From Escherichia phage aalborv: a DNA stretch of 46,660 bases. The translations under genes and the position numbers were made by a program. Positions 159 to 43,706 of this stretch are shown one piece after another (the first letter of the stretch is position 1; every line of letters starts with the position of its first letter). The stretch lies in sequence record NC_049829.1. One strand, 5' to 3'. The notes under the pieces were generated by a model. It did no database searches. It worked only from the letters and a program-made list of their open reading frames with translations, and was not told the origin of the DNA.

Positions 159-184
159 TTTTATTTCCTCATGTTCGTTTCGAT

Positions 185-235
185 AAAATAATTATGCCCG
201 ACACAAGGCAGGGCTTTTTAACAAAAAGTGCTATT
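185..235 (-). promoter_or_regulatory. motif-type promoter module (AATAGCACTTTTTGTTAAAA, 22-bp spacer with inverted repeat, -10 CATAAT)
   Basis: Motif at 216..235; -10 at 191..196; hairpin-capable GCCC..GGGC in spacer. Confidence 0.55.
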
Positions 236-3712: not shown

Positions 3713-3740
3713 TTGAGTAATGCCATTTGGCGTGTATAAT
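3713..3740 (+). promoter_or_regulatory. sigma70-like promoter (TTGAGT-16-TATAAT) for HTH-primase operon, divergent and overlapping the helicase promoter
   Basis: -35 at 3713..3718, -10 at 3735..3740; the -10 lies in a palindromic TGTATAATACA shared with the leftward promoter. Confidence 0.45.
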
Positions 3741-3791: not shown

Positions 3792-4265
3792 ATGAAAGAA
3801 CAGCGAATCGCAGTATCAACTGGCAAGATTGACAAGCGCACAATTAATGGCAATAACGGAACCAGACGAGGCAAGGATAAGAAGAAACGCAAACGCCCTA
3901 CAGGATATTATGTACTAAAAGATGAAGTGCGCGCTGGGCTAAAAGCACGCCTTGACATCCTTATTGAGTATTACGGAAGTGTATCAGCAATGGCAAAACG
4001 TCTTAACGTTAGCCAGCAAACTGTAAATCAGTGGCGTGTTCGCGGTATGATTTCAGCCGCTGGCGCTCAAAAGGTGCATAACGATTACAAAAAGTATGGC
4101 TGTCAAGGCTATCGCGCTTCATTCTGCCGTCCAGATCTGCGATTTGATTCCAATGGAAAACCGCTCACAAAGAGATGTGATAAGCGTGAAATGTTGCGAG
4201 TGGTAAGAATGTCAGATTATGAACCTGGCGGATTCCTGTATAAACCTGAAAGCACTAATTGCTAA
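3792..4265 (+). CDS. helix-turn-helix DNA-binding protein (Cro/YdaS-like HTH), basic N-terminus
   Basis: 157 aa; HTH-like segment SVSAMAKRLNVSQQTVNQWRVRG; GGAGAA SD; followed by intrinsic terminator 4273..4310. Confidence 0.55.
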   Translation: MKEQRIAVSTGKIDKRTINGNNGTRRGKDKKKRKRPTGYYVLKDEVRAGLKARLDILIEYYGSVSAMAKRLNVSQQTVNQWRVRGMISAAGAQKVHNDYKKYGCQGYRASFCRPDLRFDSNGKPLTKRCDKREMLRVVRMSDYEPGGFLYKPESTNC

Positions 4266-4272
4266 AAACAAT

Positions 4273-4310
4273 GCCTGGCATGATGTTATCATCTGTCAGG
4301 CTTTTTTGTT
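4273..4310 (+). terminator. intrinsic terminator after HTH gene
   Basis: Imperfect GC/AT stem GCCTGGCATGAT..ATCATCTGTCAGGC followed by TTTTTTGTTT. Confidence 0.5.
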
Positions 4311-4320
4311 TGAGGTGCAT

Positions 4321-5253
4321 ATGAACAACGAAAACTTTATGGTTTATCAAAAGGAAGATGTTCTCCCATATATGCAGGGATTATGGCGTGAGGCGCTACA
4401 AAGTATTTGCGGTCTTCCAAATGAAGTTTTTAACGGCAAGCATCAATCTTGCCCCCACTGCGGCGGAAAGGATCGCTTTAGATGGACGGATAAACTTGGA
4501 GATAAAAAAGGCGATGGCGGTGCGATCTGCAACGTGTGCGGAAACGATACTGGAATCGGTTGGATCATGAAGCTAACCGGAGAACCTTACAGCGAAGTGA
4601 TCAATATTTTGGGCCGCTTTCTTGGAAAAGTTCCGCAGGACTATAGAATCAAGGCAAATAAGCGAGTATCTCGTGATTCTGGTTATTCGTTTGGGAAACA
4701 GGCAAGCCATGAATGCTGCGAGCGCGTTATGTCAAAAACACTAAAATTTGATCGCACGCCGTTAAGCACATATGAAGGAATATGCCCGCCTGAAGATGGT
4801 CATTATGATTGCGGCGTAAAAGATGGTCGATACATTCACGCGTTACCATGTTACCTTGTGCATTCAGATGATATTGATGATGAAATGTGCAATGTGCTTT
4901 TCATTGATGAAGAAGGTAAACAGTCTTTTCTAGCAAAGGACTACACGCGAGGGTCGATTGTTAGAACCGGAAGTACAGATAAGACTATCTATCTTTGCGT
5001 TGACTGGATTGATGCGCAACATATTCATCTTGCAACTGGTCAGGAGGTTTGGGCCTGTTTTGATGCAACTAACATTGAGATTGTGGCTTACAGGTATAAA
5101 GGCAACAGAAGAATGCGAGTTGTCTGTAAGAGCACAGATCGTGACGCGATCATTGCTGCCGAGGAAAGAGGACTTGAAATTATGATGCCGATTAATGATA
5201 ATTACAGACAAGGGATAGAGAGGAAGGTTTTCAAACCTGAATCTATTCTCTAA
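4321..5253 (+). CDS. DNA primase-like protein with N-terminal C4 zinc ribbon
   Basis: CPHCGG...CNVCGN (C-x2-C-x21-C-x2-C) resembles primase zinc-binding domain; start trimmed from track 4219 to ATG 4321 (GAGGTG SD) because 4266..4310 is a terminator hairpin. Confidence 0.55.
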   Translation: MNNENFMVYQKEDVLPYMQGLWREALQSICGLPNEVFNGKHQSCPHCGGKDRFRWTDKLGDKKGDGGAICNVCGNDTGIGWIMKLTGEPYSEVINILGRFLGKVPQDYRIKANKRVSRDSGYSFGKQASHECCERVMSKTLKFDRTPLSTYEGICPPEDGHYDCGVKDGRYIHALPCYLVHSDDIDDEMCNVLFIDEEGKQSFLAKDYTRGSIVRTGSTDKTIYLCVDWIDAQHIHLATGQEVWACFDATNIEIVAYRYKGNRRMRVVCKSTDRDAIIAAEERGLEIMMPINDNYRQGIERKVFKPESIL

Positions 5254-7879: not shown

Positions 7880-7921
7880 GCGGTGAATTATAACACCGCA
7901 TTTTTCATTTGTTTAGCTATT
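7880..7921 (-). promoter_or_regulatory. degenerate motif-type promoter (AAATAGCTAAA ... TATAAT)
   Basis: -10 TATAAT at 7886..7891 inside inverted repeat TGCGGTG..CACCGCA; partial motif at 7911..7921. Confidence 0.4.
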
Positions 7922-9415: not shown

Positions 9416-9465
9416 AATAGCACTTTTTGCTAAACGCCTGCTGTAAGATCGTGTATAGTTGCAAC
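9416..9465 (+). promoter_or_regulatory. motif-type promoter (variant AATAGCACTTTTTGCTAAA) for Cor-like gene
   Basis: Motif 9416..9435; -10 TATAGT 9454..9459 after 21-bp spacer. Confidence 0.5.
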
Positions 9466-13700: not shown

Positions 13701-14166
13701 TGTAAGAGTCTCCGTCAACAGCCATATCAACAGCATAAGTAACCTTAACGCCGACAAGATCGCCGTTATCCTCTTGTCTAATGCCTGTTGGCATTAGCAT
13801 TTTGATTCTGATAGCCGATAATGTTTTGTTGGTTACAGAAATTACATAAGGATTTGATGTAGTAATGTCACGCGCCAGCGTCACTTCGCTTGATGTGTCA
13901 GTAAACCCCTGGATGTAATCTTGCGTCTGCGTTCCAGGTCGAAATTCAGCTTTCACACCCTGGTAGTTAACAGTTCCGTCGTCTGCAATTACCGGAACAT
14001 CATCAAGATACAGATCGCGAAGTGTAAAATCTGGATCGCACTCGCCATCGGAAACGGCAAGAAGGATTTTGATTTTGTTGATTGAGATCAGGTTATCTTC
14101 CATCTCTTTCGGAACATAAGGTTTTGATGATCCGCCCTTACTGCCCGTTATCATATTTTCAGTCAT
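10741..14166 (-). CDS. tail tip / host specificity protein (lambda J-like central tail fiber)
   Basis: 1141 aa, largest ORF after tape measure; position after I-K-L-M homologs; AAGGTG SD; sigma70-like promoter 14194..14228. Confidence 0.8.
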   Translation of the reverse strand: MTENMITGSKGGSSKPYVPKEMEDNLISINKIKILLAVSDGECDPDFTLRDLYLDDVPVIADDGTVNYQGVKAEFRPGTQTQDYIQGFTDTSSEVTLARDITTSNPYVISVTNKTLSAIRIKMLMPTGIRQEDNGDLVGVKVTYAVDMAVDGDSYKEVLLDTIEGKTRSGYDRSRRIDLPAFNDRVLLRVRRVTADSTSSRVTDLIKLQSYAEVIDAKFRYPLTGLVYVEFDSELFPNQIPNISIKKKWKLINVPSNYDTVMREYHGSWDGTFKKAWSNNPAWVLYDIITNQRYGLDQRELGVHVDKWSLYEAAQYCDQKVPDGKGGTEPRYLCDVVIQSQIEAYQLIRDICSIFRGMSFWNGESLSIVIDKPRDPSYIFTNDNVVDGDFQYTTASEKSMYTQCNVTFDDEQNMYQQDVEGVFDTEAALRFGYNPTSITAIGCTRRSEANRRGRWILKTNLRSTTVNFATGLEGMIPSIGDVIAISDNFHSSNLKLNLSGRVMEVSGLQVFAPFKIDARPGDFIIINKPDGKPVKRTISKVSGDGKTIELNIGFGFEVKPDTVFAIDRTDIALQQYVVTSIGKGDDDDEFTYSITAVEYDPNKYDEIDYGVNIDDRPTSIVQPDTMAAPENVQISSYSRIVQGASVETMVVSWDKVPYASLYEMQWRKGDGNWLNTPQTANKEIEVEGIYSGNYQVRVRSVSASGSTSPWSRIVTASLTGKVGEPGAPVNLTASDNEVFGIRVKWGMPEGSGDTAYIELHQSPDGTAENSSLLTLIPYPQYEYWHGTLPAGHVVWYRIRSVDRIGNVSGWTDFVRGMASDDVEAVLGDILDKIFDTEAGKDLKENAIDSANKIKDQAQSIIQNALANDTDVRIMRKENGKRKAEFRQSIQLIANETEARVTAMTQLKAEFNEEITSEVTRLDQAIATESETRATAIEKLKSQIGDDIQGQLTRVEEAIASETEARVSADTALTAKFGDVESALTEKLDSWAGVNGVGAQYAMKLGLTYNGQKYSAGMVMQLSNSAQGLISQILFDAGRFAIMTSSTGGSYTLPFVVENNQVFINSLLVKNGSITNAMIGNFIQSNNYVWNQTGWRLDKNGTFENYGSTPGEGAMKLTNETISVRDANGRLRVQIGRLTGTW

Positions 14167-14193
14167 ACTTTTTCACCTTTTGTGCTATTTGAT

Positions 14194-14228
14194 TTGTTGA
14201 ATTATACGGGCAAAAAAAAAGCCGCGCA
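14194..14228 (-). promoter_or_regulatory. sigma70-like promoter TTGCGC-17-TATAAT upstream of J-like gene
   Basis: -35 at 14223..14228 (within terminator stem), -10 at 14200..14205; partial AAATAGCAC element in 5'UTR (14181..14189). Confidence 0.45.
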
Positions 14229-14236
14229 ACGCGCGA
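14208..14236 (-). terminator. intrinsic terminator after I-like gene
   Basis: GC-rich stem followed by 9 T on minus strand. Confidence 0.6.
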
Positions 14237-16349: not shown

Positions 16350-16376
16350 TAAAAAAGCCGCACAAAGGCGGCTTGA
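16350..16376 (-). terminator. intrinsic terminator between M-like and L-like genes
   Basis: Stem AAGCCGC..GCGGCTT followed by TTTTTT on minus strand. Confidence 0.6.
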
Positions 16377-19421: not shown

Positions 19422-19448
19422 TAAAAAAGCGCCCGTAGGCGCTTATTT
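19422..19448 (-). terminator. intrinsic terminator between GT chaperone and tape measure gene
   Basis: Stem AAGCGCC..GGCGCTT followed by TTTTTT on minus strand. Confidence 0.6.
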
Positions 19449-20071
19449 TGAATGCATCATTTCAAGTGCTTTTTGCTCCATGATTCGCAAGTCGTTTAGC
19501 GCCATCTCGCGATCCTCAACCTTGTAAATCTCAAAAAGCATAGGCAAGACATTATAATCAAATCCGTAAGCGCCACCGCCAGAACACCTCCATTGCGTTT
19601 GCATTGCGCAAAATATATCCCATGATTGCATCATGCTTTCATCAAATATAACCTCTGGCGGATCTTCTCCTTCATAGTCTGCCCTTGTAAGGCCAACGGC
19701 CTCAAGTTCTGCATCTGTCGGCGGTTTCTGATAAAACAGGTAAACCGCCCTTTTTAGTTTTTTACTCGCTGCCCCGCAAGCGCTTTCATGTATGCGCTAG
19801 TTAATCCGATTGCTGTTGCTGGGTAGTAATCAAGAAGCTGTTTAATATTTTCTTCGTTAAATTCATCATCAAGATTCCAACCGGAAGCAAGGAAGGTGAT
19901 CATTTCAACATCGCTCATTGGAGTATCTGACGTGTAGCGCTCGTGAATCTCACTTGTTTTGCGGTGGCGAACTGTGAAGATAATTGTTTGATCTTCTCCG
20001 TTAGGCATTGCAAATTTCACTGGCAATTTAAAGTCAGGAAGCGGCCCAATCGTCAATTTCATTTTTGACAT
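19443..20071 (-). CDS. tail assembly chaperone fusion (G-T-like) produced by programmed -1 ribosomal frameshift
   Basis: -1 frame is open from the slippery site (19757..19763) to stop at 19443 and matches track ORF 19443..19634; stem-loop 19720..19750 lies 6 nt downstream of the heptamer. Confidence 0.65.
19754..20071 (-). CDS. tail assembly chaperone (lambda G-like)
   Basis: 105 aa; ends with slippery heptamer A_AAA_AAC immediately before stop; AAGGAG SD. Confidence 0.7.
   Translation of the reverse strand: MSKMKLTIGPLPDFKLPVKFAMPNGEDQTIIFTVRHRKTSEIHERYTSDTPMSDVEMITFLASGWNLDDEFNEENIKQLLDYYPATAIGLTSAYMKALAGQRVKN
19757..19763 (-). other. -1 programmed ribosomal frameshift slippery heptamer A_AAA_AAC
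   Basis: Heptamer occupies the last sense codons of the G-like ORF; downstream 8-bp stem GGCGGTTT..AAACCGCC at 19720..19750. Confidence 0.65.
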
Positions 20072-20083
20072 TTCTTTCTCCTT

Positions 20084-20134
20084 GATAGCACTTTTTGTTA
20101 AAAGAATTGATTATGAATCGTGTAGCATGATTGT
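20084..20134 (+). promoter_or_regulatory. motif copy (GATAGCACTTTTTGTTAAAA) in antisense orientation within late operon, TAGCAT 22 bp downstream
   Basis: Motif 20084..20103 on plus strand between minus-strand major tail and G genes; -10-like 20123..20128. Confidence 0.4.
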
Positions 20135-20142
20135 ACAGTAAC

Positions 20143-20170
20143 AAAAAAAGGGGCGCAACGCCCCTTGTTA
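20143..20170 (-). terminator. intrinsic terminator after major tail gene
   Basis: Stem AGGGGCG..CGCCCCT followed by 7 T on minus strand. Confidence 0.65.
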
Positions 20171-20833
20171 TTATGCTACTTGAGAAGGTAGGAAGGTGAA
20201 TCGACCTTTCAGGGTTACAGACAGGGAAACAGTTTCCATTTCGTTAACGGTCGTTTGTGGGATCTCGTTAAACGAAAGGACACCAGCCCAGCAACGCATC
20301 TCTTTCGCTTTCGGTACATACATGCGAAGCGCGGTCACTTTGCATGATTCATCTGCTGAACGCAATAGCGGATAGATCGCGTTATCGTATTCGTGCGCAA
20401 AAGTGTAAGTAAGAGAAACAGCGCTCTTATAGGTAGGTAACTGCTGTTCCTGGTCGTCTGCCAAACACTGATAAGTATAGTATTGCTGTTCGCCGCCGTC
20501 CTGCGACAAATCCTGAACCCAAGGGATCTCAGTCCATGCATTAATCCTGGCAAAAGATGCAGTGCCGCCAGTCGGGAACACGTTCTGTTCGGTAGTATCA
20601 ACACCCTCAAGAGTTACGCTTGTTTCTTCACCGTCAGCCTTTACACGCATAACACGATCAATCAGCTTACCCCAAGAGGACGCAGTTATGATCACATAAT
20701 CACCTTTCTTGTACTCAGTGCCACCAGATGCAACGGTGAATACAGGATCTTTATCGTTTGATACTGCCGTTGCTTTGATTTCGCTGCCACGATTGCTCTC
20801 AACGAAAATTTGCGATCCATTTGGTAAATGCAT
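20171..20833 (-). CDS. major tail protein (by synteny)
   Basis: 220 aa ORF immediately upstream of G/GT and tape measure; strong terminator follows (20143..20170). Confidence 0.55.
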   Translation of the reverse strand: MHLPNGSQIFVESNRGSEIKATAVSNDKDPVFTVASGGTEYKKGDYVIITASSWGKLIDRVMRVKADGEETSVTLEGVDTTEQNVFPTGGTASFARINAWTEIPWVQDLSQDGGEQQYYTYQCLADDQEQQLPTYKSAVSLTYTFAHEYDNAIYPLLRSADESCKVTALRMYVPKAKEMRCWAGVLSFNEIPQTTVNEMETVSLSVTLKGRFTFLPSQVA

Positions 20834-22464: not shown

Positions 22465-22495
22465 TGACAAAGGGCGCTTATAGCGCCCTCTTTAT
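22465..22495 (-). terminator. hairpin after 22495..22767 (weak terminator)
   Basis: Stem AGGGCGC..GCGCCCT followed by TTTGTCAT. Confidence 0.4.
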
Positions 22496-22781: not shown

Positions 22782-22812
22782 TAAAAAAAGGGAATCCAGT
22801 TAAGGATTCCCC
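22782..22812 (-). terminator. intrinsic terminator after major capsid gene
   Basis: 8-bp stem GGGAATCC..GGATTCCC followed by 7 T on minus strand. Confidence 0.7.
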
Positions 22813-23799: not shown

Positions 23800-23844
23800 T
23801 TTCTTCCTCCATATATAAAGGTCGTTAGTATGTAACGGACCAAT

Positions 23845-23863
23845 GATAGCATTTTTTGTTAAA
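23845..23863 (+). promoter_or_regulatory. motif copy (GATAGCATTTTTTGTTAAA) in antisense orientation upstream of capsid gene
   Basis: On plus strand between minus-strand genes; no -10 at the usual spacing. Confidence 0.35.
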
Positions 23864-23882
23864 CGTGCAACATAATTTTGTG

Positions 23883-24330: not shown

Positions 24331-24356
24331 ATAAAAAAGGCGCTCAGTGAGCGCCA
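24331..24356 (-). terminator. intrinsic terminator between the two decoration-like genes
   Basis: Stem GGCGCTC..GAGCGCC followed by TTTTTT on minus strand. Confidence 0.6.
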
Positions 24357-33662: not shown

Positions 33663-33714
33663 GTTTGCATTATAGCGAGGCATTGCGCCCCGCTTTTAGC
33701 AATTCGTGCTATTT
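33663..33714 (-). promoter_or_regulatory. motif-type promoter variant (AAATAGCACGAATTGCTAAAA), -10 TATAAT
   Basis: TTGCTA then 22-bp GC-rich inverted-repeat spacer then TATAAT (33669..33674). Confidence 0.5.
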
Positions 33715-34517: not shown

Positions 34518-34568
34518 AGGCCTACTATACAGCAGGCCCGATAATCTGTTTTTGCAAAAAGTGCTATT
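34518..34568 (-). promoter_or_regulatory. motif-type promoter (variant AATAGCACTTTTTGCAAAAA), -10 TATAGT
   Basis: Motif 34549..34568; -10 at 34524..34529. Confidence 0.5.
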
Positions 34569-35604: not shown

Positions 35605-35655
35605 GAGGCCATTATACCTGGCCCCACATTTGAGTTTTAACAAAAAGTGCTATTT
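35605..35655 (-). promoter_or_regulatory. motif-type promoter, -10 TATAAT in loop of GGCC..GGCC inverted repeat
   Basis: Motif 35636..35655; -10 35611..35616. Confidence 0.55.
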
Positions 35656-36040: not shown

Positions 36041-36066
36041 TTTGTTTTCCTCAATCTCGTTTCGAT

Positions 36067-36117
36067 GAGGCTATTATGCCAGGCTTTTACACCTGGCTTT
36101 TAACAAAAAGTGCTATT
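36067..36117 (-). promoter_or_regulatory. motif-type promoter module, exact inverted copy of module 40786..40836
   Basis: Motif 36098..36117; spacer hairpin GCCAGG..CCTGGC; -10 CATAAT 36073..36078; conserved leader CATCGAAACGA. Confidence 0.55.
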
Positions 36118-37495: not shown

Positions 37496-37546
37496 AATAG
37501 CACTTTTTGTTAAAACTGAATCCGCCTGATCGGGTACATTACACAC
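37496..37546 (+). promoter_or_regulatory. motif-type promoter module, first of the rightward early array
   Basis: Motif 37496..37515; -10 TACATT 37535..37540; leader CATCGAAAAGAA. Confidence 0.55.
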
Positions 37547-37575
37547 ATCGAAAAGAACCGATCAGGAGATAGCAA

Positions 37576-38370: not shown

Positions 38371-38420
38371 ATAGCACTTTTTGTTAAAACTCAATCCTCG
38401 TATTCCTGTACATTACACAC
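38370..38420 (+). promoter_or_regulatory. motif-type promoter module
   Basis: Motif 38370..38389; -10 TACATT 38409..38414; leader CATCGATAACGAA...GAGGATTTGAAA. Confidence 0.55.
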
Positions 38421-38447
38421 ATCGATAACGAATGCGAGGATTTGAAA

Positions 38448-41466: not shown

Positions 41467-41512
41467 CATTTTTTGTTAAATGCGGGTAGCATTGGTGCGG
41501 TATTATTGCCGC
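41462..41512 (+). promoter_or_regulatory. motif-type promoter module (variant AATAGCATTTTTTGTTAAA)
   Basis: TTGTTA 41473..41478; 22-bp spacer; -10 TATTAT 41501..41506. Confidence 0.5.
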
Positions 41513-41534
41513 ATCAAAAAAGGAGTTATCATCA

Positions 41535-43679: not shown

Positions 43680-43706
43680 ATCGAAACGAATATGAGGATT
43701 TTAAAA

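Follow-up and report, generated by a model that had tools for sequence, protein, structure and literature searches.

A marbox-like repeat ahead of the chaperone gene

The 46,660-nucleotide (nt) stretch of DNA analyzed here, the window, belongs to Escherichia phage aalborv (NC_049829.1) and carries the structural genes of the phage on its minus strand. A gap of 99 nt separates the gene for the major tail (tube) protein from that for the tail assembly chaperone G, which is followed by an 890-amino-acid tape measure gene, and within this gap lies a 20-nt sequence, GATAGCACTTTTTGTTAAAA, on the plus strand (Table 1). On the gene strand, the reverse complement of this motif is followed by 12 nt (AAGGAGAAAGAA, with the Shine-Dalgarno sequence first) and then by the G start codon at 20071. 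A first-pass annotation of the DNA had described the motif in just this position and orientation between the two minus-strand genes, and 12 nt upstream of the G start, abutting its Shine-Dalgarno sequence; the sequence agrees on both points. Over about 4 kb around the motif the DNA is 96-97% identical to the Hanrivervirus phages pSf-1, grams, and G29-2, which are T1-like siphoviruses (Drexlerviridae) of Escherichia and Shigella.

The motif is one of 15 copies in the window (at most three mismatches), against 0.00 expected from 100 shuffled sequences. Its 15-nt core matches the consensus 5'-GCAnnWWnTGnnAAA-3' of the marbox, the site of the AraC-family activators MarA, SoxS, and Rob of enterobacteria (PMC12052159), at 15 of 15 positions. 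Exact matches to this consensus number 18 in the window, where 1.73 are expected and no more than 5 occurred in any of 100 shuffles, and all copies of the family promoter motif are such exact matches [e.g., 217-231(-), 4252-4266(+), 9420-9434(+), 33695-33709(-), and 37500-37514(+)]. The copy at 4252-4266 reproduces, at all 15 positions, the marbox consensus gcactaattgctaaa published elsewhere (PMC5684230). We also scored the sites with an independent weight matrix, built from 36 Salmonella MarA/SoxS/Rob/RamA sites located by chromatin immunoprecipitation sequencing (ChIP-seq) (PMC10268841). Phage copies reach about 13 to 17.4 of the maximal 17.7 bits, and the copy at 20084-20103 reaches 15.3; the window holds 15 hits of at least 14 bits versus 1.0 expected. 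Some phage copies are identical to ChIP-identified Salmonella sites (e.g., GCACTTTTTGCAAAA and GCATTTTTTGCTAAA). The marbox is asymmetric and is bound by a monomer that carries a pair of helix-turn-helix (HTH) motifs, so that orientation determines the outcome (PMC12052159). Given this match, the idea of the first-pass annotation that the motif might act as an orientation-independent binding site is weakened.

The repeat itself has been described in phage TLS as a 21-nt direct repeat, aaATAGCACnnnTTGnTAAAA, with 21 copies there and further copies in T1, Rtp, and Rogue1 (PMC11447400). The TLS repeats are oriented with transcription, about 76 nt before start codons, and were suggested to be stoperators, enhancer sites, or UP elements, with no mention of the marbox (PMC11447400). 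The window copy belongs to the same motif family and fits the TLS consensus as gATAGCACtttTTGtTAAAA; unlike the repeats in that description, it opposes both flanking genes and has no conserved open reading frame (ORF) downstream. TLS lacks a copy between the major tail and chaperone genes, and its DR7 corresponds to a reverse copy close to the capsid gene, which is taken up below.

Two opposed candidate promoters in the gap

In a class II promoter a forward marbox overlaps the -35 position, typically with no -35 hexamer (PMC12052159, PMC10268841). At micF of E. coli MG1655 we measured 20 nt between the end of the 15-nt core and the -10 hexamer TAGAAT. Of the 15 copies in the window, 13 are co-oriented with the downstream gene. 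In these, the 20-mer is separated by 18-19 nt from a -10-like hexamer, and a start codon comes about 70 nt later, an arrangement which argues that the 13 copies serve as promoters of nonstructural genes. Strong marbox hits with a (T/C)AnnnT hexamer at a gap of 19-21 nt (mostly 20) make up 17/21 in the window, 18/23 in T1, 17/21 in grams, and 15/20 in Klebsiella phage KLPN1. Nearly every copy of the family motif in the window thus has class II spacing to a -10 element, and T1, grams, and KLPN1 are alike in this.

The copy in the tail gap, which points against the operon, shares this geometry. The hexamer TAGCAT, which had been placed 22 bp downstream of the motif, is indeed present, at a distance of 19 nt, and the gap of 20 nt between core and hexamer equals that of micF (TAGAAT there, TAGCAT here). 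We refer to this putative promoter as L. Its predicted start coincides with the position at which the first-pass annotation had a plus-strand transcript begin, and relative to it the marbox core spans -47 to -33 in forward orientation. The center of the core, at -40, falls within the range of -36 to -55 that defines class II sites (about -41 at micF). The -35 position of L holds AAAAGA, i.e., no -35 hexamer, and its -10 hexamer keeps the T, A, and T at positions 1, 2, and 6. TAGCAT is also the -10-like hexamer of two other marbox copies with equal geometry, in T1 and KLPN1.

Relatives of the locus were collected via the major tail protein (58 loci fetched, 54 examined). In 32 loci, the window included, the motif occupies this position and likewise points backward; they comprise 23 distinct sequences, and T1 is among them. 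The presence of the copy at 20084-20103 is therefore far from chance. Across the 23 distinct sequences, the motif holds 1.83 bits per position versus 0.76 for the 19-nt spacer, the length of which is constant in every one of them. Within the -10 hexamer, positions 1, 2, and 6 are invariant at 2.00 bits and positions 3 to 5 drop to 0.58 bits, the variants being TAGCAT, TATCAT, TAGAGT, TAGGAT, TACGAT, TAAGAT, TAGATT, TATATT, and TATCTT; most lineages have a TGn just upstream of the hexamer. An invariant T, A, and T at fixed spacing bears the signature of selection on a sigma-70 -10 element. The promoter reading of the first-pass annotation is thus supported at the level of sequence, by a geometry equal to that of the co-oriented promoters and by a TAnnnT signature at invariant spacing across genera, and we regard L as very probably a selected promoter-type element.

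Beyond L lies a GC-rich hairpin, which begins 13 nt into the predicted L RNA. It had been located at 20149..20165, about 20 nt after TAGCAT, and taken as a possible end of a short plus-strand RNA of 30-40 nt. The distance stands, but the stem comprises 20148-20166, and a role in terminating the major tail gene had been overlooked. On the minus strand the hairpin is followed by a long T-run, TTTTTTTGTT (7 T and then GTT), and on the plus strand only by GTTATTAT (5 T in 8); a simple scan calls both strands terminator-like. Folding energies are -19.1 kcal/mol (z = -4.0) on the minus strand and -16.2 kcal/mol (z = -3.5) on the plus strand, and the hairpin is annotated as a terminator in G29-2 and T1. 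Because the long T-run follows on the minus strand, the hairpin is chiefly the intrinsic terminator of the major tail gene. A 30- to 40-nt antisense RNA ending here would be possible in the clade of the window and only there; T1, in which the plus-strand sequence after the hairpin is CCCCCTGTGGATGG, and most relatives have no U-tract on that strand, which makes the short RNA unlikely as a selected product.

Any L transcript passing the hairpin would cover the 3' end of the major tail gene. Aside from 13 nt shared by the predicted 5' ends of the two opposing transcripts, the predicted L RNA does not extend over the G leader or its ribosome site. Among 13 lineages, no ORF behind L keeps its position, length, or start codon, no family reached the gathering score in an Rfam search, and the G leader shows no structure (-3.1 kcal/mol, z = +0.27). 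The transcript of L is thus probably a noncoding by-product.

A second promoter-like sequence, pointing in the opposite direction, overlaps the terminator. In every lineage the T-run of the terminator leads directly, on the gene strand, into TGTAAAAT, TGTAGAAT, TGTACAAT, TGTAATAT, or TGCATAAT. A TTGnnn element, 16-18 nt (mostly 17), and TAnAAT or CATAAT are found in 44 of 46 distinct related sequences, those lacking the motif included, and the TTG is the loop of the terminator hairpin. We interpret this as a sigma-70-type promoter embedded in the terminator (R), from which transcription of G/GT and the tape measure gene would begin anew. The 12 nt downstream of the L -10 hexamer, which include that of R, hold 1.69 bits per position. 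L converges with R; the two -10 hexamers lie one base from each other, and the predicted starts, at 20135 for L and at 20123 for R, overlap by 13 nt. With opposing elements, overlapping predicted starts, and conservation of both hexamers, the two have the sequence features of a face-to-face promoter pair. The first-pass annotation had suggested that the motif might control G/GT expression; a conserved R placed head-on to L, which had escaped notice, offers a concrete route for such control. A different gene-strand promoter proposed by a scan, TGTACA-16-CATAAT (20137-20110), was dropped, being conserved only within the window's own clade.

Table 1. Coordinates of the features discussed in the text; promoter elements and starts are predictions
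Feature	Position	Strand	Remarks
Major tail (tube) protein gene	20171-20833	minus	Pfam Phage_tail_3, E=2.4e-61
GC-rich hairpin AAGGGGCG-CAA-CGCCCCTT	20148..20166	both	Minus: intrinsic terminator of the major tail gene, then TTTTTGTT; plus: then GTTATTAT
R, -35 TTGCGC	20158-20153	minus	In terminator loop and 3' stem arm
R, -10 TACAAT	20135-20130	minus	17 nt from -35; one base from L -10; contains the predicted start of L
R, predicted start	20123	minus	From position of -10
L, predicted start (A)	20135	plus	7 nt after -10; from position of -10
L, -10 TAGCAT	20123..20128	plus	20 nt after marbox core, 19 nt after 20-mer
20-nt motif GATAGCACTTTTTGTTAAAA	20084..20103	plus	15-nt core 20088-20102 (GCACTTTTTGTTAAA), exact marbox consensus match
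Shine-Dalgarno AAGGAG (20083-20078) and ATG (20071-20069) of G	20069..20083	minus	Reverse-complemented motif lies directly upstream
Tail assembly chaperone G gene	19754-20071	minus	Pfam Phage_TAC_4, E=1.8e-31; first gene downstream of R
Capsid promoter TTGCAC (23870-23865), 16 nt, TATCAT (23848-23843)	23843..23870	minus	Reverse marbox (20-mer 23845-23864, plus) forms its 16-nt spacer
Large tail gene promoter TTGCGC-17-TATAAT	14229-14201	minus	TTGCGC in hairpin loop; second terminator-embedded promoter; 1141-amino-acid tail gene
Cro-like regulator promoter TTGAGT (3713-3718), 16 nt, TATAAT (3735-3740)	3713..3740	plus	Sigma-70 type
Cro-like regulator gene	3792-4265	plus	HTH; weak Pfam hits YdaS_toxin, P22_Cro
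Helicase marbox promoter	Core 3775-3761; -10 TATTAT 3741-3736	minus	Opposes regulator promoter

Comparable arrangements occur at other loci of the window. A backward copy at 23845-23864, present in almost all lineages, lies inside a putative promoter that shortly precedes the major capsid gene; 16 of 17 distinct relatives have TTGnnn-16-TAnnnT there. A marbox in the promoter spacer is the layout in which MarA and SoxS repress pbpG (PMC12052159). This copy is not an antisense promoter, because no -10 element on its own strand has a T at position 6; the conserved TA there corresponds to the stop codon of the upstream gene in reverse. A transcript from the capsid promoter would start with a stable 5' hairpin (about 23841-23820).

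Between the genes for a Cro-like regulator and a helicase, the -10 hexamers of two opposed candidate promoters overlap, and the reversed motif abuts the ribosome site of the regulator gene, as it does at G. The regulator promoter reads TTGAAT-17-TATAAT in T1, and its TLS equivalent is P57, one of just three sigma-70 promoters predicted in that phage (PMC11447400). The region looks like a small genetic switch and, together with the capsid case, supports a logic of opposing promoters.

A terminator-embedded promoter is also predicted before the large tail gene, where a degenerate forward motif, ATAGCACAAAAGGTGAAA (14188-14171), contains the ribosome site, 4 nt before the ATG (region 14164-14229). 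The same is true of T1 and TLS (DR8).

A possible interference mechanism and its alternatives

These elements could work together as follows, in a model whose chance of holding in full we judge to be about even. The near-consensus marbox and TAGCAT, 20 nt from its core, would make L a class II sigma-70 promoter with the activator overlapping the -35 position, firing against the late tail operon from a plus-strand start at about 20135. Because the starts are convergent and 13 bp apart and one polymerase would cover both, RNA polymerase could hold just one of L and R at a time. As long as the activator is available, a period in which the same factor would drive about 15 early promoters, polymerase would be recruited to L and R would be occluded; any polymerase that leaked past the terminator would run head-on into a complex, all of which would hold down the expression of G/GT and the tape measure gene. 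Once the activator became limiting, R and the capsid promoter would be released. In the clade of the window the RNA made from L may end at the hairpin (about 35-45 nt); elsewhere it would continue as antisense RNA into the last part of the major tail gene.

Parts of such a mechanism have precedents. Face-to-face promoter pairs are known from IS10 (pIN/pOUT), coliphage 186 (pR/pL), and P22 (Pant/Psar); their overlapping opposed starts interfere, and the antisense partner makes a small noncoding RNA. Unlike in these pairs, the overlap between L and R is 13 bp, so that exclusive occupancy rather than collisions over a long overlap would be expected, the antisense RNA stays off the ribosome site of the regulated gene, and one partner would depend on an activator. 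In the middle promoters of T4 a MotA box replaces the -35 element, and MotA and AsiA are encoded by the phage. Here, too, an activator box takes the place of the -35 element across a whole temporal class, but no phage activator is recognizable and the box is a host regulon site. The host's class II MarA/SoxS/Rob (RamA) promoters (micF, lpxC P2, lpxL P1, and rfaY P1) share with L the forward GCAnnWWnTGnnAAA over the -35 position and the absence of a -35 hexamer. L differs from them in that it is found in a virulent phage, has no gene to drive, and is directed against an operon, with binding of a host protein predicted from sequence; moreover, in contrast to host marboxes, the phage sites are near consensus, almost identical to each other, and present at about 20 per 50-kb genome. 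At pbpG a marbox excludes productive polymerase at a sigma-70 promoter, and the capsid promoter has exactly this layout. At the G locus, unlike at pbpG, the marbox is outside R (+22 to +36), and exclusion would act through the polymerase recruited to L.

Several points weigh against the model. R is a predicted promoter, its -35 element is no more than TTGnnn, and the -10 hexamer of L, TAGCAT, is weak. TLS-like, Webervirus-like, and a few other lineages do without the L module (their gap is shorter) yet keep R and the marbox promoters, so L is dispensable. Of five further late-operon terminators on the minus strand (16355-16374, 19427-19444, 22471-22489, 22789-22812, and 24339-24355), four have no promoter-like element behind them and pass directly into a Shine-Dalgarno sequence and a start codon; these look like attenuators that would set gene dosage. 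Given that these other terminators have no promoter behind them, transcription of G/GT may be mostly read-through, affected by L only through collision. Finally, with no MarA-like gene found in the phage, a virulent phage would rely on host stress regulators, which is biologically surprising; unstressed cells contain little MarA and SoxS, and most of their Rob is sequestered (PMC10268841). Apart from this, the sequence that follows the terminator at 16355-16374, TGATACAAT, resembles an extended -10 element.

The activator itself could be host Rob, MarA, or SoxS or a phage protein. A profile search of uncertain sensitivity, based on sequences of the three host proteins, gave no significant MarA/SoxS/Rob homologue among the six-frame ORFs of the window, T1, and grams (best E=0.49 and, on a spurious antisense ORF, E=0.018), and no AraC-type two-HTH protein was detectable in these three genomes. 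We consider a host protein of the MarA/SoxS/Rob type the probable binder of the motif. That the motif is instead read by a phage-encoded protein, either the Cro-like regulator (3792-4265) or an unrecognized one, with a merely convergent match to the marbox, seems doubtful to us; it would change the factor and leave the architecture untouched. The motif varies far less than host marboxes do, the regulator gene is served by a putative sigma-70-type promoter of its own, carries a motif in its leader, and looks autoregulatory, and the G-type variant of the motif holds a partial dyad, TAGCA-N5-TGCTA, all of which would suit a phage reader. Such a reader would leave it to coincidence that the host consensus is matched at 15 of 15 positions, that some copies are identical to Salmonella ChIP sites, and that spacing and orientation are exactly those of class II promoters and equal to micF; it also has to contend with the lack of a detectable AraC-type two-HTH protein in the window, T1, and grams. 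The partial dyad is a feature of the host consensus, and the T-type copies, which are commoner, do not keep it intact; a dimer site for the Cro-like regulator centered at -42 was accordingly kept as a minor rival only.

The architecture, too, can be read differently. The marbox-binding protein, seated at +22 to +36 of R and abutting the G Shine-Dalgarno sequence, might repress or block G/GT directly, any initiation at L being incidental. Reverse or degenerate marboxes with no antisense -10 element do occur in or just past other late promoters (in the capsid spacer and upstream of the large tail gene, as well as upstream of terS and the tail fiber gene of T1), and pbpG is repressed from a marbox in its promoter spacer (PMC12052159). 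Direct repression would leave unexplained why TAnnnT is invariant at exactly 19 nt despite a drifting spacer and why most lineages have a TGn upstream of the hexamer, and we regard it as unlikely. A monomeric activator bound at +30 is, in addition, a poor roadblock. We find it more unlikely still that the RNA is the product, with L antisense RNA acting on the 3' end or terminator of the major tail mRNA to alter its stability or termination and hence the ratio of major tail protein to G/GT. The predicted RNA would be perfectly complementary to the terminator region, and its hairpin is stable (-16.2 kcal/mol, z = -3.5) and followed, in the window's clade, by a U-rich tract on a strand called terminator-like. 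As that tract is not conserved, the length and 3' end of the RNA show no visible selection; there is no overlap with the G leader or ribosome site beyond the 13 nt of 5' ends, and no Rfam family was matched.

For two further readings the chances seem slight. An early-type promoter with no gene behind it might prime replication, as at oriF/oriG of T4, or be the decaying relic of a transposed early promoter. GC skew tracks gene orientation with no inflection near 20.1 kb, however, and no AT-rich unwinding region follows; a relic is ruled out by the strong purifying selection across genera. Both are very improbable, and the case for an RNA element is, if anything, poorer: in the G leader, the reverse complement of the motif, adjacent to the Shine-Dalgarno sequence, would control translation or take part in processing. 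It does abut a Shine-Dalgarno sequence both at G and at the regulator gene, but the G leader lacks structure (-3.1 kcal/mol, z = +0.27), and at about 15 other sites the sequence is held at a fixed distance upstream of a -10 element, a constraint at the level of DNA.

Further candidates were rejected. For a sigma-54 promoter (TGGCAC-N5-TTGCA, with G3 and G14 11 nt apart), TAGCAC-N3-TTGC is 2 nt too close and has AG for GG, and a conserved sigma-70-type -10 element follows. The consensus sites of IHF, Fis, and CRP, compared by eye, did not fit. Pairing of the spacer with the ribosome site in read-through RNA, in the manner of an anti-Shine-Dalgarno sequence, is not general (own pairs, -6.24 kcal/mol; cross pairs, -6.22 kcal/mol; p=0.67). 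A stoperator of the mycobacteriophage L5 type would have one fixed orientation and a phage repressor; most copies here stand at a fixed distance from a -10 element, orientation is mixed in the late region, and the virulent phage has no recognizable immunity repressor.

Significance and further features of the repeat family

Neither an RNA polymerase nor a sigma factor is encoded by T1-like phages, predictions yield few sigma-70 promoters in them, and their transcription has been puzzling since the T1 genome. Our literature search found no transcriptomes or start-site maps of T1-like phages and no paper tying Drexlerviridae or T1 to the marbox or to MarA, SoxS, or Rob. Reading the 21-nt repeat as a class II marbox would supply a testable mechanism, activation by host Rob, MarA, or SoxS, and would tie phage growth to the antibiotic and oxidative stress regulon. 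The backward copy and its capsid sister suggest that one factor could switch early genes on and keep structural genes off. It is tempting to speculate, and we do so only tentatively, that T1-like phages run their whole early program on near-consensus class II marboxes, with an abundant host regulator (Rob or MarA/SoxS/RamA) as the activator of 15-20 early promoters per genome; backward sites at the constitutive sigma-70-type promoters of the structural operon, in the capsid promoter spacer and, as L against R, at the chaperone gene, would hold late genes off, and titration or loss of the factor during DNA replication would set the early-to-late switch without a phage sigma factor, polymerase, or late activator. 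If this were true, induction of mar, sox, or rob would alter the timing of phage gene expression and hence phage-antibiotic interactions, and compact promoter switches under the control of an activator could be modeled on the face-to-face arrangement.

Class II marbox promoters, repression from a marbox, and face-to-face promoters are already known, and the repeat itself has been published, described as co-oriented with transcription. What appears to be new is a virulent phage family built on near-consensus marboxes, a gene-less antisense promoter set head-on to a terminator-embedded promoter, and a reverse marbox within the capsid promoter.

The family promoters show some further regularities. 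In about half of 50 of them, the -10 hexamer is situated in the loop of a GC-rich inverted repeat that is specific to the promoter [e.g., 35610-35636(-), 34525-34550(-), 41481-41515(+), and 7880-7912(-); also in T1 and KLPN1]. The spacer of family promoters pairs with the 12 nt after the -10 hexamer at a mean of -8.0 kcal/mol, versus -4.7 kcal/mol for mismatched pairs (p=5e-7); the backward copy L lacks such a repeat. A conserved leader, (C)ATCGA(A/T)AACGA, which begins about 8-12 nt past the -10 hexamer, is common to many early promoters [e.g., 160-175(-), 36060-36075(-), 37540-37555(+), 38415-38430(+), and 43690-43705(+)]. At 4252-4325 (+), between the regulator gene and a primase gene, a consensus marbox is followed by a -10 hexamer, TATCAT, in the loop of a hairpin with a T-run (GCCTGGCATGATGTTATCATCTGTCAGGC TTTTTT), an element that resembles a promoter and a terminator superimposed. 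Among database relatives of the T1-like tail region, 19 records labeled Campylobacter phage (host, Campylobacter jejuni) match it at 60-80% identity, an unexpected host label for a Drexlerviridae-like sequence.

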